From Gammaproteobacteria bacterium TMED112 (GTDB lineage: Bacteria > Pseudomonadota > Gammaproteobacteria > Magnimaribacterales > TMED112): a stretch of DNA of 64,000 nt. The stretch covers positions 153,461 through 217,460 of the forward strand of contig NHFN02000017.1 of assembly GCA_002170245.2 (NCBI GenBank). The letters are read 5' to 3'. Of the stretch, positions 227 to 10,437 are shown piece after piece. A program made the position numbers and the translations under genes. The notes beneath the pieces are model-generated. The model did not search any database and was not told the origin of the DNA. It saw only the letters and a program-made list of their open reading frames with translations. Numbering within the stretch: position 1 is the first letter of the stretch; each line of letters starts with the position of its first letter.

Positions 227-1480
227 TTACCTTAAAAATGGTGACCAAGCTGGTTCTTTTAATTCTCCATATAAAGCTGGAAGTTTAAAACTTACCTTAC
301 TACTAATATTAACACCAGCAAGATACGATAAATTTCCGTCTTTTGTGGAATAGATTATAACATTGCCATTAGGTGCTATGCATGGACTTTCATCATTTTT
401 AGTTGAAGTGAGAATTTCTAAGTCTCTGGAGCTTAAATGTAATTTAGCAATATTGAAGTCAGTCTTTGACCTGTGCACAAAAATTATTTCATTTTTATCA
501 AGATATGAAGCCCTGGCATTATAATTGCCTTCAGTTGTAAGTCTTCTTTTGAGTTTTGATCTTACATTTATTTCATAAATTTGAGGACTGGCAGATCTAT
601 CTGAGGTAAAAATTATATTTTTTCCATCAGGAGACCAAGCTGGTTCAGTATCAATAGCTAGATTTTCAGTTAATCGCGTAATTTTTTTTGACTCCAAATT
701 TATGGTATAAATCTCTGAATTGCCGTCTTTTGTACTAGTAAAAGCCAAATCTTTGTTATCAGGTGACCATGCTGGTGAGCTTACAGAAGATTTAGAGCTC
801 AAGACTAAATTCCTTTTCCCAGTTGCTAGATTTTGAGTAAAAACTTGTGCTCGATTATTTTCAAATGAAACATAAGCGATTTTTTTTGCATCTGTAGACC
901 ATGCTGGTGATATTATCGAATTGTTTGACTTTAAAAGAACCTGTTCGTTAAAACCATCTGCATCACTAATAATTAGTTTGTGAGTATCTCCGTTTCTAGT
1001 AACATACATGAGCTTTGTTGATGAAATACCTTCAATACCGTAAAAATATTTATATATTCCATCCGAAACATAATGGCTTGACTGCCTTAAACTATCTGGC
1101 AACCCTAAAACTCTTCTTTTATCCTCAGTTTCGTTATAACTAATATCAAAAATTGAGTAAGCGATATCTAGATTATTGTCTTTATTTTGAACTTCTACAA
1201 AAATTATTGAATCTACATCCATCAACAACCAGTCTCTTTGAATAACTTCACTTTCATTTATAGGAATACTTAATAATTCATCCATACCTAAGACTTTAAA
1301 TTCTCCTGTTCTTTTTAGATCATTTGAAATTACATTGATAATTTCTTGGCCAGCAAGAGAATTATCATTTTTTTCTAAAATAGCAATTTTTATTGGCTTG
1401 CTTGCACTTTCAGTTATTTCAAGAACAAGATCAGCCTTGAATTCAAAAGCTAAGAGCAATAAAAAAATTATTCGTTTCAT
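227..1480 (-). CDS. tolB: Tol-Pal beta-propeller protein TolB
   Basis: Signal peptide, repeated SPAWSPD/EPAWSPDG (PD40) motifs, tol operon position. Confidence 0.95.
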   Translation of the reverse strand: MKRIIFLLLLAFEFKADLVLEITESASKPIKIAILEKNDNSLAGQEIINVISNDLKRTGEFKVLGMDELLSIPINESEVIQRDWLLMDVDSIIFVEVQNKDNNLDIAYSIFDISYNETEDKRRVLGLPDSLRQSSHYVSDGIYKYFYGIEGISSTKLMYVTRNGDTHKLIISDADGFNEQVLLKSNNSIISPAWSTDAKKIAYVSFENNRAQVFTQNLATGKRNLVLSSKSSVSSPAWSPDNKDLAFTSTKDGNSEIYTINLESKKITRLTENLAIDTEPAWSPDGKNIIFTSDRSASPQIYEINVRSKLKRRLTTEGNYNARASYLDKNEIIFVHRSKTDFNIAKLHLSSRDLEILTSTKNDESPCIAPNGNVIIYSTKDGNLSYLAGVNISSKVSFKLPALYGELKEPAWSPFLR

Positions 1481-2064
1481 TCTGGTTTAAACCTTACAGT
1501 AAAATTTGAGAAATATGCCTGAAAGGTTTGATCATCCAAATTTCTGACATATTTAATTTGCTTGTACTTTCTAATGGCATTCAGTGCTGCTCGATCGAAT
1601 GCTTTGTCTCCACTTGTTTTTTTCATTTCAATATTTTCAATGATTCCTAATCTATTTATGCTCAGATTAAAATCTGTAAACATATCTGCTTTTGCGCTGT
1701 TTGGCCTAATCCAGAGTGCTTCTATATCTTTGATCACTTTATAACTTATTTGTTCAATAACATCAGCATTATCTGAAACTCTTTTTTCCATCTCTTCTTC
1801 TTTTAAATACTCTTCAAAATTTTCTATTTCGTTAGGTTTATTTGTATTTAGTTCCTTGGAATCTTCTTTCCTCAAACTCTTTTCTTGAAGTTTGCTGCTT
1901 TTTCGAACCTCTTCTTTTGCTTGTTGCTCTTCATCCAGAAAATTTACATTTGTAATCTTTCTTGTTGTGTTTTCAACACTTTCAGTTGTGAAAAAAACGT
2001 AACTTAAAAAGATTAGAGCATGCACAATTATCGAAAAAAATAATGCTGATAACCATTTCATCAT
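1477..2064 (-). CDS. tolA: Short TolA (TonB C-terminal family)
   Basis: N-terminal TM with SxxxH (SIIVH), C-terminal SGDKAFDRAALNAI, between tolR and tolB. Confidence 0.8.
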   Translation of the reverse strand: MMKWLSALFFSIIVHALIFLSYVFFTTESVENTTRKITNVNFLDEEQQAKEEVRKSSKLQEKSLRKEDSKELNTNKPNEIENFEEYLKEEEMEKRVSDNADVIEQISYKVIKDIEALWIRPNSAKADMFTDFNLSINRLGIIENIEMKKTSGDKAFDRAALNAIRKYKQIKYVRNLDDQTFQAYFSNFTVRFKPE

Positions 2065-2480
2065 GGTTGCGTTGCTAGTGAAAAATTATTAGCACCATTC
2101 GATTGTAAAGCGCTTAATAATTCAGCTATTGATTGATAAGAGGTATTTTGATCACCTCTAACAATAATTTCTATATCAGGATTTGTTTGTATTATTCTCG
2201 CAAATCGGTCTTCAATGAATCCCAGAGAAACTTGAACATTACTACCGTCTTCTTCGATAAAATATTGTCCATTTTCATTAACATCAATAATAAATGGCTC
2301 AGTGTTATCAAGCTCAATTTCATCTGCTGGAACACTTGGTAAGTTGATATCTAATCCTTGAACTGCTAGTGGTGCCACAACCATGAAAATTACCAATAAA
2401 ACTAACATAATATCTACGTATGGAACTACATTGATTTCGTTAATTGCTTTTGTTGATTTGCTTCTTTTTTTTAGGAGCAT
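2061..2480 (-). CDS. tolR: TolR (ExbD family)
   Basis: EINVVPYVDIMLVLLVIFMV motif. Confidence 0.93.
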   Translation of the reverse strand: MLLKKRSKSTKAINEINVVPYVDIMLVLLVIFMVVAPLAVQGLDINLPSVPADEIELDNTEPFIIDVNENGQYFIEEDGSNVQVSLGFIEDRFARIIQTNPDIEIIVRGDQNTSYQSIAELLSALQSNGANNFSLATQP

Positions 2481-2484
2481 AGTT

Positions 2485-3132
2485 TTATTTTTTATCTATT
2501 TGGATTATCAATTGTTCCGCAAATGCTAGAGTTCCATTAATTAAGTTATCTAGTTTTTTTGAAAATTGGTTATAGGCAATCAGTGCAGGTATTGCTGCTA
2601 ATAAACCTACTGCTGTGGCAACTAACGCCTCAGAAATTCCTGGAGCAACAGAACTTAATGTGAGTTGTGCAGTGGTTGATAGCCCTTGGAATGCATTTAT
2701 AATTCCAATTACTGTTCCTAATAAACCTATGTAAGGTGAACTCGAACTTATCGTGGCTAGTAGTGAGAGGTTTTTTGATAGCCTTTCCTCTTCTCTGTTT
2801 ACAATTACTCTCAAAAGCCTCTCTGTAGATTCAACTTTATTTAAAGATTCGTTTTTATTCATCAAACTGTCATAAACTGAAACAAGTATCAATTCTGACG
2901 GCTCTAGATCAGTAATATCTTTTTCTTTGAGTGAAAGGTATAAATCCTCAATCTTTTCACCCTCCCAGAACTTGTCCTCTATATCATGTGAAGCATCTGT
3001 TGACCTGGCTAGAGTGAAATATTTTTCAAATATTAGAACCCATGAGGTAATTGAAGCAATTATAAGAATTGCCAGTATTATTTGAACAGGTAGTGAGGCC
3101 TGCAATAAAAGTTCAAGTGCGTCAAAATCCAT
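2485..3132 (-). CDS. tolQ: TolQ (MotA/TolQ/ExbB family)
   Basis: SPYIGLLGTV and VAPGISEALVATAVGL motifs. Confidence 0.95.
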   Translation of the reverse strand: MDFDALELLLQASLPVQIILAILIIASITSWVLIFEKYFTLARSTDASHDIEDKFWEGEKIEDLYLSLKEKDITDLEPSELILVSVYDSLMNKNESLNKVESTERLLRVIVNREEERLSKNLSLLATISSSSPYIGLLGTVIGIINAFQGLSTTAQLTLSSVAPGISEALVATAVGLLAAIPALIAYNQFSKKLDNLINGTLAFAEQLIIQIDKK

Positions 3133-3539
3133 TATTTATGGCCCTCCAAATCGATTTGGTATTTCTTCTTTAGTAAATAAATGAAGCTTTCCCAGTTTAA
3201 ATCTACAAGTTTGCTTGAATCAGATAGTTGCTCATTTAAGTTTTTAAACATGACTCTCACTCTAATAGGTTTATTATCAAATTTATAAACTAAGGCTGGA
3301 AATTCTCCATCACCAATAACACTTAAAACCTGATTCCACCATGCAGCAGCAGGCTCAAAACCTTTTTTATATGCCTTGCACTCAATATTCCATCTTCCTA
3401 ATTTTAAGTCAGGGTGGTTTTTTTCTTGATACTGGTTGAGTATTCTTCTCACTGGTTTAAGAAGATTTAGGTCCTCTTGCAACTTCTTGGCAATTTTTCT
3501 TTCGAAGTCATGCCCTTTTTTTCTTTGATTAATTGTCAT
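3132..3539 (-). CDS. PD-(D/E)xK nuclease, Hjc/phage-type Holliday junction resolvase-like
   Basis: KGHDFERKIAKKL, PDL and IECK motifs; occupies the usual ruvCAB slot between yebC and tolQ. Confidence 0.7.
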   Translation of the reverse strand: MTINQRKKGHDFERKIAKKLQEDLNLLKPVRRILNQYQEKNHPDLKLGRWNIECKAYKKGFEPAAAWWNQVLSVIGDGEFPALVYKFDNKPIRVRVMFKNLNEQLSDSSKLVDLNWESFIYLLKKKYQIDLEGHK

Positions 3540-3541
3540 GT

Positions 3542-4276
3542 TTAAAAAACTGATTCATCTAGATCTGCATTAGTGAAAACATCCTGAACATCATCAAGAT
3601 CTTCAATTGCGTCGGTCAATTTCATATTTTTTTCAGACTGTTCAAAACTTAAAGGAATGTTCGTTTCTGTTTCCATAACTATTTCAGAGGCTTCAACTAT
3701 AAAGTTACCTAACTCTAACTTTTCCTTAAGGTTGGATAATTCTTTCGGCTCACAAACAATTTCGGTCTTACTTCCATTAAGTTCGTTAATATCATTTGCA
3801 CCATTTTCAGCCGCAATATCATAAAGCTTTTCATCAGACATATCTGAATTAACCAATAGCTTTCCTTTTGCTTCAAATAGATATGCGACGCTGCCTGATG
3901 TACCTAGATTTCCACCATATTTTGTGAATGCATGCCTTATTTCTGAAACCGTTCTATTCTTATTATCTGTTAGTGTTTTAATAAAGACCGCTACACCTCC
4001 AGGAGCATACCCCTCATAAATTACTTCCTCTAGATTTTGGCCCTCTTGGCCTCCTGCTCCTCTTTGTATTGCTCTATTGATTGTATCTTTTGTCATATTA
4101 GCAGACAGTGCTTTATCATAAGCAAGTCTTAATCTTGGATTATCTTCTATAATTGGACCACCATCTTTAGCCGCTACAGTAAGTTCTCTAATTATTTTTG
4201 TAAAAACTGCGCCCCTCTTAGCATCTTGTCTTGCTTTTCTATGTTTTATATTTGCCCATTTGGAATGCCCTGCCAT
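3542..4276 (-). CDS. yebC: YebC/PmpR family protein
   Basis: MAGHSKWANIKHRK start, YEGYAPGG, DDVQDVFTN. Confidence 0.97.
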   Translation of the reverse strand: MAGHSKWANIKHRKARQDAKRGAVFTKIIRELTVAAKDGGPIIEDNPRLRLAYDKALSANMTKDTINRAIQRGAGGQEGQNLEEVIYEGYAPGGVAVFIKTLTDNKNRTVSEIRHAFTKYGGNLGTSGSVAYLFEAKGKLLVNSDMSDEKLYDIAAENGANDINELNGSKTEIVCEPKELSNLKEKLELGNFIVEASEIVMETETNIPLSFEQSEKNMKLTDAIEDLDDVQDVFTNADLDESVF

Positions 4277-6036
4277 TAATCCTCCTTTCTAGAAATATGT
4301 AGCTCATCGAGACTTTCATCTGTTACAGATCCAGGTGCTTCAGTTAGCAAGCATAACGCTGATTGAGTCTTAGGAAAGGCTATTACATCTCTTATAGAAT
4401 CTGCTCCCACCATTAACATAGCTAGCCTATCAAGCCCAAATGCGATTCCTCCATGTGGTGGACAACCGGTTGTTAAGGTTTTTAAAAAGAAACCAAATTT
4501 TGTCTGTGCTTCTGCTTCAGATAATCCTAGTAATTGAAAAACTTTTTCCTGAAGAGATTTATTATGAATACGAATAGATCCTCCACCAATTTCCACTCCA
4601 TTTATCACCATGTCATAAGCTTTCGAATTAATTTCTAGAGGGTTTAATTTACCAAGCTTTTCAAGATCTGTTTCGAACGGACATGTGAATGGATGATGCA
4701 AAGAAGTTAAAGATCCATCCGAAGCTTCCTCAAACATTGGAAATTCAGTAATCCAACAAGCTGCAAAATCGCCCTCCAAAAGATCTAAATCATCACCAAG
4801 CTTAGTTATGAGTCTACTCATATAGTCATTCACAATTTTCTCTTTGCCAGCTCCAAAAAATATTAAGTCACCTTTTTTAACATTTAAAGTAGTCATGATA
4901 TTTGTTAAGCATTCTTCAGAAAGATATTTAAGAATCGGCGATGCAAGGTCTGAAACATTATCACCTTCAACTCTTATATAAGCTAAACCTTTAGCTCCAA
5001 ATTCTTTGACAAATTCTGTATATCTGTCGATTTGTCCTCTACCAATTTTATGACCTTCAGGTACTATTAGTGCTGCAATTCTTGAGTTATTGTCGTTTGC
5101 CGGGTCTGAAAAAACTTTGAATTCCTCTTTTTTAAAAATGTTAGATAACTCAATAAGTTGCAGAGGGTTTCTTAGATCGGGTTTATCACATCCATACCTC
5201 TCCATAGCATCGTGCCATTTTAATCTTGGTAGCTTATTAAGTTTTTTATTTAGAATTTTCTTGAATGATTCACTGATCATTTCCTCCGCAAAATTCATCA
5301 CGTCTTGTTCCTCTACAAATGATGCCTCAATATCAATCTGTGAAAACTCTGGTTGTCTATCAGCTCTAAGATCCTCATCTCTAAAACATCTAGCAATCTG
5401 GTAATATCTATCAAAACCAGAAATCATCAACATTTGTTTGAATAATTGTGGTGACTGAGGAAGTGCAAAGAAATTACCCGCACTCGTTCTACTTGGAACT
5501 AGATAATCTCTCGCACCTTCTGGTGTAGCTTTTGTTAATATTGGAGTTTCTATATCCACAAAATTGTTATTCTCTAAATAATCTCTAACAGATTTTGTCA
5601 GGTTGGATTTAAGTCTTAAATTATTTTGCATCTCAGGTCTTCTGAGATCTAAAGTTCTGTTTTTTAATCTTACGTCTTCACCAACTTCTGATGATTGATC
5701 AAGTGGAAATGCAGGTGTCTCTGCTTCATTCAATAATTCAATTGAACTGCATTTAATTTCAATGTCACCCGTTGTTAATTGAGCATTTTGAGAATCTTCA
5801 GGCCTCCCTTCAACTTGCCCGAATGCCTTGATAACATATTCAGACCTAATATCTTCTGCTATCTTGAAAGCTTGTTCATTTTCAGGATTTACAACAACTT
5901 GAACAATCCCAGTACTATCTCTTACATCAAGAAAAATCACACCACCATGATCTCTTCTTCTATGGATCCATCCACAAATAGTTACTTCTTCGTTGAGATT
6001 TTTAATATTTAAATTACCACAATGATGACTTCTCAT
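4276..6036 (-). CDS. aspS: Aspartate-tRNA ligase (possibly non-discriminating Asp/Asn)
   Basis: RRRDHGGVIFLD, ALPQSPQLFKQ, FRDEDLRADRQPEF, PPHGGIAFGLDR. Confidence 0.98.
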   Translation of the reverse strand: MRSHHCGNLNIKNLNEEVTICGWIHRRRDHGGVIFLDVRDSTGIVQVVVNPENEQAFKIAEDIRSEYVIKAFGQVEGRPEDSQNAQLTTGDIEIKCSSIELLNEAETPAFPLDQSSEVGEDVRLKNRTLDLRRPEMQNNLRLKSNLTKSVRDYLENNNFVDIETPILTKATPEGARDYLVPSRTSAGNFFALPQSPQLFKQMLMISGFDRYYQIARCFRDEDLRADRQPEFSQIDIEASFVEEQDVMNFAEEMISESFKKILNKKLNKLPRLKWHDAMERYGCDKPDLRNPLQLIELSNIFKKEEFKVFSDPANDNNSRIAALIVPEGHKIGRGQIDRYTEFVKEFGAKGLAYIRVEGDNVSDLASPILKYLSEECLTNIMTTLNVKKGDLIFFGAGKEKIVNDYMSRLITKLGDDLDLLEGDFAACWITEFPMFEEASDGSLTSLHHPFTCPFETDLEKLGKLNPLEINSKAYDMVINGVEIGGGSIRIHNKSLQEKVFQLLGLSEAEAQTKFGFFLKTLTTGCPPHGGIAFGLDRLAMLMVGADSIRDVIAFPKTQSALCLLTEAPGSVTDESLDELHISRKED

Positions 6037-9463: not shown

Positions 9464-10437
9464 TTTGCCAGAACAGAAGCTTCGATTTCTTCAAGAATTT
9501 TTGGGTTTTCCTTTAAGAACTCTGAAGTTTTGGCAATACCTTGGCCAATTTTATCGCCTTTATAACTGTACCAAGCTCCTGCTTTTTCTATAATTCCTTT
9601 TTTCACAGCAAACTCAATTATTTCAGCATTTTTGTTAATACCTTTACCATAAAGAATCTGAAATTCTACGACTTTGAATGGAGGTGCCATCTTATTTTTG
9701 ACGACTTTTACCCTTGTTTCATTCCCTACTACTTCATCTCCATCTTTTATTGCTCCGATTCGTCTTATGTCCAATCTTACACTTGAGTAAAATTTAAGTG
9801 CATTACCACCTGTAGTAGTTTCTGGACTTCCAAACATTACGCCAATTTTCATTCTGATTTGATTAATAAAAATAACCATAGTATTTGATTTTTGAATACT
9901 TCCTGTAATTTTTCTTAGGGCCTGGGACATTAATCTTGCTTGAAGACCAACATGTGAATCACCCATATCACCCTCCAGCTCTGCTCTAGGAACTAATGCT
10001 GCTACACTATCAATAACAATTACATCTAAACTTCCACTTTTGACCAACATATCAGTCACCTCTAGTGCTTGTTCTCCTGTGTCAGGCTGAGATAAAAGTA
10101 GTTCATCAATGTCAACTCCAAGAGCCTTTGCATATTCAGGGTCTAATGCGTGTTCTGCATCAATAAAAGCAGCACTACCGCCGGCTTTCTGACACTCTGC
10201 AATAATTTGAAGTGTTAATGTTGTTTTTCCAGAAGATTCTGGACCATATATCTCAACCACCCTTCCTTTTGGGAGACCACCTATTCCAAGAGCATTATCT
10301 AACCCAAAGGAACCGGTTGGGATAGAGGGAACTTCAACAGTTTCCCTGGTACCTAATTTCATAATTGTTCCTTTACCAAATTGGCTTTCAATTTGTTTTA
10401 GAGCTGTATCGAGCGATTGTTTTTTTGTATCTGCCAT
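9460..10437 (-). CDS. recA: Recombinase RecA
   Basis: [25 protein letters not shown]. Confidence 0.99.

Follow-up and report, generated by a model that had tools for sequence, protein, structure and literature searches.

Gene organisation at the locus

The stretch of DNA analysed here (the window, 64,000 nt of contig NHFN02000017.1 of Gammaproteobacteria bacterium TMED112) contains a run of minus-strand genes in the order aspS-like, yebC, a 135-amino-acid (aa) open reading frame (ORF), tolQ, tolR, tolA-like and tolB-like. The 135-aa ORF, located at 3132..3539 on the minus strand, is the subject of this study: it encodes a PD-(D/E)xK nuclease of the family PDDEXK_15 and is assigned as an Hjc-like putative Holliday-junction resolvase on the basis of Pfam and PHROG matches, conserved residues, fold and dimer prediction. 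As read in the initial annotation, its start codon (ATG) lies 2 nt past the stop codon of yebC and its own stop codon overlaps the ATG of tolQ by 1 nt. The order to which the genome belongs is referred to as SAR86, a name that rests on the source names of the homologues (SAR86 cluster or Gammaproteobacteria metagenome-assembled genomes (MAGs)).

The neighbouring genes, all on the minus strand, were assigned as follows. Upstream, yebC (3542..4276) is a member of the TACO1/YebC family according to the Pfam models PF01709 (E = 3.6e-51) and PF20772, and is preceded by a 586-aa ORF (4276..6036), which was named aspS-like from its position and from the initial annotation; the corresponding ORF also stands upstream of yebC in SAR86 loci and in six of the ten outgroup loci described below. 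Downstream are located tolQ (2485..3132; Pfam MotA_ExbB, E = 1.8e-35), tolR (2061..2480; Pfam ExbD, E = 7.4e-28), a tolA-like gene with a TonB_C-type C-terminal domain (1477..2064; Pfam TonB_2, E = 1.8e-7, and TonB_C) and a tolB-like ORF of 417 aa (227..1480), the translation of which matches the genes in the tolB position after tolQ-tolR in outgroup loci with 36-39% identity. No other phage genes were found beside the nuclease ORF, in agreement with the initial annotation, its flanks consisting of aspS, yebC and tolQRAB. The gene is single-copy in the genome and its GC content is host-like (33.3% compared to 33.8% for the genome). Short contigs from RNA libraries, obtained in four metatranscriptome runs of two studies in which DNA carry-over is possible, lie on the nuclease ORF: one is placed inside it (3340-3488, 1 difference in 149) and two span the boundary of the ORF with yebC (3454-3646, 93% alike, and 3405-3646, 90.5% alike). 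Small shares of the stretch were found in 15 sequencing runs.

The ORF encodes a PD-(D/E)xK nuclease of a phage family

The protein was recognised over residues 4-122 by the Pfam model PF24608 (PDDEXK_15, 'phage putative PDDEXK endonuclease') with 31.1 bits against a gathering cut-off of 27 (E = 2.7e-7), and a second match was obtained with PHROG 244 (category DNA metabolism, E = 5e-12). Judged by its sequence, it belongs to the phage family PDDEXK_15 and not to Hjc proper. No NCBIfam family matched the ORF, the RuvC model (Pfam PF02075) found no match in the protein, and the RecU model (which we take to be PF03838) was absent from the Pfam scan at E ≤ 1. RusA was considered as a further identity and rejected; PHROG 244 carries the name 'RusA-like' as a label only, and the Pfam RusA model (PF05866) was matched neither in the protein nor in five genomes of the order.

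The family is small: a HMMER search of 1.84 billion cluster representatives returned 211 relatives at E ≤ 1e-3, of which only two reached E ≤ 1e-30. Homologues of the ORF itself numbered 143 of 153 candidates at E ≤ 1e-3, and the 120 listed are 73-98% identical. One of these clusters (P0002, 93% identical to the ORF) is named 'Euryarchaeota archaeon' by one source, the names of other clusters being SAR86 or Gammaproteobacteria; the archaeal label probably comes from a mis-binned MAG.

The motifs quoted in the initial annotation are all present in the translation (K8-G9-x-x-F12-E13-R14-x-x-A17-x-x-L20, P43-D44-L45 and I52-E53-C54-K55). In an alignment of 118 family members, phage members included, 13 positions are at least 90% conserved, namely R6, K8, G9, E13, R32, Q36, D44, E53, K55, W67, W68, Q70 and P81, and the twelve of these that were compared within the genus (R6 was not among them) do not vary in any of the 21 orthologues. 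E13, D44 and E53-x-K55 correspond to the classic PD-(D/E)xK catalytic set and are the candidate catalytic residues. The arrangement that defines the PD-(D/E)xK superfamily, E...D...E-x-K on an alpha/beta core, was recovered, with the residues conserved and the secondary structure of the model in accordance. A single-sequence search of the Protein Data Bank (PDB) sequences gave nothing at E ≤ 10; with the family profile, the best PDB sequence match was Hjc of P. furiosus (E = 0.13), in which the KGxxxER, D-L, IExK and IPVL..KF stretches are aligned with the nuclease.

Predicted fold and oligomeric state

An AlphaFold2 model of the nuclease, built on the 118-sequence alignment, was obtained with a predicted local distance difference test score (pLDDT) of 89 and a predicted template modelling score (pTM) of 0.85, showing a helix at residues 3-23 followed by strands at 45-47, 50-57, 80-87 and 93-97. 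A Foldseek comparison of this model with the PDB gave archaeal Hjc and Hje enzymes as all of the matches listed among ranks 1 to 19 (2wcw, 2wcz, 2wiw, 2wiz, 1ob8/1ob9, 2wj0, 1gef and 2eo0), with a best E value of 3.7e-4 at a probability of 1.00 and template modelling (TM) scores of 0.44-0.59. The matched proteins are Hjc of A. fulgidus, P. furiosus and S. tokodaii and Hje of S. solfataricus, so that the predicted model has the Hjc fold. The fold of RecU was not recovered to a comparable degree, its structure 1rzn appearing at rank 37 (E = 0.27, TM 0.29-0.32). In BFVD, a set of predicted viral structures, uncharacterised phage proteins match best (TM 0.80), with several entries named Holliday junction resolvase further down the list.

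Modelling of two copies supported a symmetric homodimer, with a score of 0.75 compared to 0.23 for the best control, contacts agreeing to at least 96% between runs and a pLDDT of at least 87. Among proteins of known structure, 20 of 30 that were solved as pairs had passed the mark used for this decision, compared to 1 of 23 single chains; the result for the nuclease may in part reflect its likeness to solved Hjc dimers.

RuvABC is absent from the sampled genomes of the order

No match to RuvC or RuvA_N was found in the window genome (1.02 Mb, 20 contigs, 91.7% complete), and the RuvB_N model gave only AAA+ matches of about 20 bits in frames of 636 and 528 aa. The searches were extended to 61 genomes of the order (0.6-1.8 Mb), representing four families and 15 genera, of which 37 are of high quality and several consist of a single contig (G007, G016, G032, G034, G036, G039 and G052 in our numbering). 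None of the 61 genomes gave a match to RuvC. RuvB stayed below its 299-bit cut-off in all of them, with a strongest match of 29 bits in frames whose lengths resemble those of ClpX, FtsH or Lon. For RuvA, too, no genome reached the cut-off (85 bits), the strongest match of 22.6 bits falling on helix-hairpin-helix stretches. An intact ruvABC elsewhere in the genome, named beforehand in the initial annotation as an outcome that would speak against a replacement, was therefore not encountered in the window genome or, above cut-off, in any genome of the order. As a baseline, RuvC was detected in 296 of 301 sampled Gammaproteobacteria genomes, including those of 0.3-0.4 Mb (four of the 296 are unpublished and were counted in this tally only); of the five negative genomes, three come from the SAR86 order and the other two are assembled in 180 and 310 contigs.

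The nuclease, scored as PF24608 above cut-off, was present in 59 of the 61 genomes, among them all 37 of high quality, the two genomes in which it was missed being 66% and 79% complete. Sporadic presence among relatives, the second outcome that had been set against a replacement, was thus not seen.

The nuclease occupies the ruv slot

The order aspS-yebC-ruvC-ruvA-ruvB-ybgC-tolQ, given in the initial annotation for Pseudomonas-like gammaproteobacteria, was recovered as the ancestral arrangement in outgroup loci centred on RuvC: yebC lies immediately upstream of RuvC in ten of ten loci, tolQ follows within about 3 kb after RuvC in six of ten, and Pfam assignments gave yebC-RuvC-RuvA-RuvB-4HBT thioesterase (ybgC)-tolQ in one locus (L026) and confirmed RuvC, RuvA and RuvB in another (L020). 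In the three SAR86 families other than that of the window, aspS-yebC-nuclease-(about 430 bp)-tolQ-tolR was found in 11 of 12 loci. In one of these (L003) the 430-bp gap is filled by a 138-aa 4HBT thioesterase, that is, ybgC (L003:1931-2347), giving yebC-nuclease-4HBT-tolQ. In the genus of the window ybgC is missing from the slot (2485..3539), and none was found elsewhere in the window genome (best tblastn E = 2.9). Within this genus, the nuclease has yebC as a direct neighbour in 21 of 21 loci and tolQ in 17 of 21. The nuclease thus adjoins yebC across all four SAR86 families, and the claim of an in situ replacement holds across the order because the slot is occupied in loci of all four. The four same-genus loci without tolQ in the fetched flank (L115, L119, L122 and L126, from G016, G029, G005 and G019, respectively) retain an intact yebC-nuclease pair; a transporter-like membrane ORF of at least 433 aa stands in place of tolQ in L119, and L115 is less certain than the other three.

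Elsewhere in the Proteobacteria PF24608 is rare, being found in 2 of 297 non-SAR86 genomes of the class and in 8 of 400 genomes of the phylum other than that of the window. None of ten such loci outside SAR86 has yebC, tolQ or aspS within about 1.5 kb, so that no second lineage with a yebC-linked PF24608 was found among them. A streamlined gammaproteobacterium (G218; 1.1 Mb, 99% complete) contains a 111-aa ORF (L019:1483-1818) with a sub-threshold PDDEXK_15 match of 22.7 bits; this ORF lies away from yebC, and RuvC is retained in the genome.

The remaining recombination pathway

Other recombination genes were surveyed in five genomes, that of the window (G000) and four single-contig genomes (G016, G032, G034 and G036), which together cover all four families. 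RecA was found in all five; in the window genome, the range matched by the RecA model is 9472..10425 on the minus strand (TIGR02012, 553.4 bits against a cut-off of 325.3; G000:C12:162932-163885, converted via the window offset). RecO and RuvX/YqgF were also present in five of five. RadA/Sms, RecQ, RecB and RusA were each detected above cut-off in none of the five, and the recombination toolkit of these genomes is very reduced. Full-length RecG was found in four of the five, including the window genome, where the match covers model positions 1-627 and its 650.8 bits fall slightly short of the cut-off of 659 bits. The partnership with RecG or RadA suggested in the initial annotation therefore keeps its first candidate, RecG being present in the window genome, and loses its second, RadA not being found in the five genomes.

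Across the order, the RecG wedge domain was detected in 51 of 61 genomes, and in one family (f3) in only two of ten. The eight f3 genomes without it (G031, G034, G037, G040, G043, G046, G049 and G055) belong to five genera, are 92-96% complete and include one single-contig genome, G034, in which the full RecG model matches only a frame of Mfd length. These f3 genomes are also without RuvAB, and G034 is in addition without RadA and RecQ.

Selection and kinship with phage genes

The nuclease gene is under purifying selection. Among 21 same-genus coding sequences, the ratio of nonsynonymous to synonymous substitution rates (dN/dS) has a median of 0.063 and a range of 0.026-0.176, as obtained from 20 of 210 pairs, the other 190 being saturated or too close; one of 22 sequences, which contains N, was left out. 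Together with the Pfam match and the many homologues, this constraint indicates that the ORF has not arisen by chance.

Relatives of the nuclease are encoded on 307 stretches in IMG/VR, the best 80 at 34-44% identity. Matches in cultured phages are limited to four records (27-32% identity), three of them Roseobacter phages. On a viral contig (L030:4928-6159) the nuclease gene comes after genes for a primase-helicase and for an exonuclease VIII-like protein. A second copy in the f3 genome G049 (L005:1492-1911, on G049:C4), 38% identical over 97 aligned residues, is located beside a RecE-like exonuclease gene with no yebC, tolQ or aspS within about 1.5 kb; it may stem from a prophage or from a phage contig that was binned with this genome. 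In both phage-type contexts examined (L030:4928-6159 and L005:3-1911), the PDDEXK_15 gene is thus positioned just downstream of a RecE/exonuclease VIII-like gene, and the two genes may form a phage recombination module that recurs.

In a tree of 189 rows and 133 columns made by a quick search, one clade with a Shimodaira-Hasegawa-like approximate likelihood ratio test (SH-aLRT) support of 99 contains all 19 SAR86-labelled rows together with ten unnamed catalogue proteins and two viral rows, L030 and L031. These results are compatible with a single acquisition, close to the root of the order, out of a recombination module of a phage.

Proposed role in Holliday-junction resolution

Combining the gene content, position, fold and phage kinship described above, we consider it likely that the ORF is a homodimeric endonuclease of a phage PD-(D/E)xK family with the Hjc fold, which acts as the Holliday-junction resolvase of the cell and has displaced ruvCAB. 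The loss of Ruv, the occupied slot and the fold all agree with the non-orthologous displacement of RuvABC by one Hjc-like phage-type nuclease that was put forward in the initial annotation, and from them we infer junction cleavage. In such a scheme, an ancestor of the SAR86 order would have captured the nuclease from a phage recombination module; the captured gene would have taken the ruvC-ruvA-ruvB slot between yebC and ybgC/tolQ, and the three ruv genes would have been lost. In present-day cells, RecA, loaded via RecO-type mediators, would form junctions, RecG would move them where it is present, and the metal-dependent nuclease dimer would nick two opposite strands to give duplexes for ligation.

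Several observations weigh against this assignment. At the level of sequence, the Pfam Hjc model (presumably PF01870) was not matched at E ≤ 1, the scan giving only PDDEXK_15 and a sub-threshold L25, and the likeness to Hjc in sequence alone (E = 0.13) is not significant; of the earlier statement that the motifs define Hjc and related phage PD-(D/E)xK resolvases, the phage family and the Hjc fold are thus retained and membership in the Hjc family is not. The structural likeness to Hjc, as judged on the predicted model, is moderate, with TM scores of 0.44-0.59 and root-mean-square deviations of 5-6.5 Å, and the lower rows of the Foldseek list include restriction enzymes and SPARDA nucleases, the PD-(D/E)xK fold serving other nucleases as well. 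RuvX/YqgF, which has sometimes been proposed as a resolvase, is present in all five genomes surveyed. In the literature searched, no paper naming PF24608 or PDDEXK_15 and no biochemical record of a member was found. In the tree, the split of L030 and L031 from the SAR86 clade has a support of 0, and therefore no donor or direction of transfer is claimed. Furthermore, the window genome is incomplete, the 61 genomes only sample the order, are related to one another and are not independent cases, and the evidence of the RNA libraries is limited to short contigs, which do not in themselves establish transcription or an operon.

One alternative, in our judgement unlikely, is that the protein is a domesticated phage nuclease with another job, such as acting on stalled or reversed forks, flaps or foreign DNA, that Ruv was lost by streamlining, and that junctions are handled by RuvX/YqgF or avoided. 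RuvX in five of five genomes, the small size of SAR86 genomes, from which RadA, RecQ, RecB and RusA were also not recovered in the five surveyed, and the many substrates of PD-(D/E)xK enzymes, reflected in the restriction enzymes and SPARDA nucleases of the Foldseek list, are all in keeping with this explanation. RuvX, however, coexists with RuvC in most bacteria, and its presence therefore explains nothing specific to SAR86. Against another job, moreover, the nuclease stands exactly where ruvCAB would be in each of the four families, only junction resolvases appear among its best matches to solved structures, and its phage relatives sit in recombination and replication modules. RecA, RecO and RecG are retained, so that junctions should still form.

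It is very improbable that the ORF is a catalytically dead or structural remnant, for instance a DNA-binding regulator co-translated with yebC and tolQ. The tight packing in an apparent operon with these two genes would suit such a role, and a passage of a comparative study of 2012 proposes YebC as a regulator of ruvABC (PMC3403352); however, none of the four candidate catalytic positions varies among the 21 same-genus sequences, all four are at least 90% conserved in the 118 family members, those from phages included, and the median dN/dS is 0.063. The last alternative, that RuvABC is present and was overlooked through incomplete assemblies or extreme divergence, the ORF being merely an extra gene, is scarcely credible: the window genome is 91.7% complete in 20 contigs and many relatives are 60-90% complete, but no match above cut-off to the three families was obtained in 61 of 61 genomes, single-contig ones included, RuvC is picked up by these very searches in 296 of 301 genomes of the class, some as small as 0.3-0.4 Mb, and the ancestral slot is physically filled, with 2 nt to yebC and 1 nt shared with tolQ.

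A further step, which we regard as tentative and somewhat doubtful, is that SAR86, a free-living bacterium, completes homologous recombination with RecA and a single phage-derived Hjc-like resolvase, most of f3 doing so without a known branch-migration motor. If f3 does lack a motor, the resolvase would act on junctions that are moved only by RecA or by spontaneous migration.

Comparison with known resolvases

The proposed resolvase can be compared with four known systems. Hjc and Hje (PDB 2wcw, 1gef, 1ob8/1ob9, 2eo0 and 4tkd) are its best fold matches and are similar in size (113-130 residues in the listed chains); the catalytic order E...D...E-x-K is common to both, the nuclease aligns with Hjc of P. 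furiosus, a homodimer is the state of Hjc and Hje and the predicted state of the nuclease, and the nuclease, like Hjc, has no gene for a partner of RuvAB type next to its own. It differs from Hjc in the unmatched Pfam model, the profile E value of 0.13 and the TM scores of 0.44-0.59, and in its distribution, Hjc being archaeal whereas the nuclease occurs in bacteria and their phages; the invariant residues R32, Q36, W67-W68, Q70 and P81, which mark its family, may be a further difference.

Passages of two papers describe how RusA, a resolvase of prophage origin, rescues ruv mutants of E. coli when RecG is present (PMC10956419, PMC3403352). By analogy, the nuclease may be a small, phage-derived, dimeric resolvase that replaces RuvABC without RuvAB and alongside RecG, which is present in the window genome. 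In contrast to RusA, it has another fold and no Pfam RusA match, its replacement of RuvABC is fixed across an order rather than being a laboratory suppressor in E. coli, and most of family f3 is also without RecG.

RecU of Firmicutes and Mollicutes is described, in a passage of PMC3403352, as a PD-(D/E)xK resolvase that replaces RuvC in lineages that keep RuvAB, with recU genes far from ruvAB. Both cases concern a PD-(D/E)xK resolvase in the stead of RuvC in a large bacterial group. According to the same passage RecU lineages keep RuvAB and have recU at a distance from it, whereas SAR86 is without all three Ruv genes and has its nuclease in the ruv slot, and the RecU structure 1rzn is only at rank 37 of the Foldseek list. 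The phage PDDEXK_15 proteins (PF24608, PHROG 244) are the nuclease's own family, with a TM of 0.80 in BFVD and 34-44% identity in IMG/VR; the phage genes sit in replication and recombination modules, whereas the SAR86 gene is single-copy, chromosomal, order-wide and of host-like GC content.

Significance

RuvABC is close to universal in bacteria, and SAR86 are very abundant bacteria of the ocean. In the literature searched, supplementary tables lying outside the search, no paper was found that links SAR86 to the loss of Ruv or to Holliday junctions. On the assignment that we favour, a single phage nuclease of archaeal-type fold would have taken over from the three ruv genes, at their own locus, in a whole order, which would provide a natural test of the minimal machinery for late recombination, a first cellular role for an uncharacterised phage family and a compact candidate resolvase for biochemistry. 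Should the absence of a motor in f3 also be true, no smaller natural pathway of late recombination than that of this family would be known from cellular life. The close homologues are annotated as 'hypothetical protein' in their source names, and pipelines that name the gene in this way would record SAR86 as being without junction resolution.

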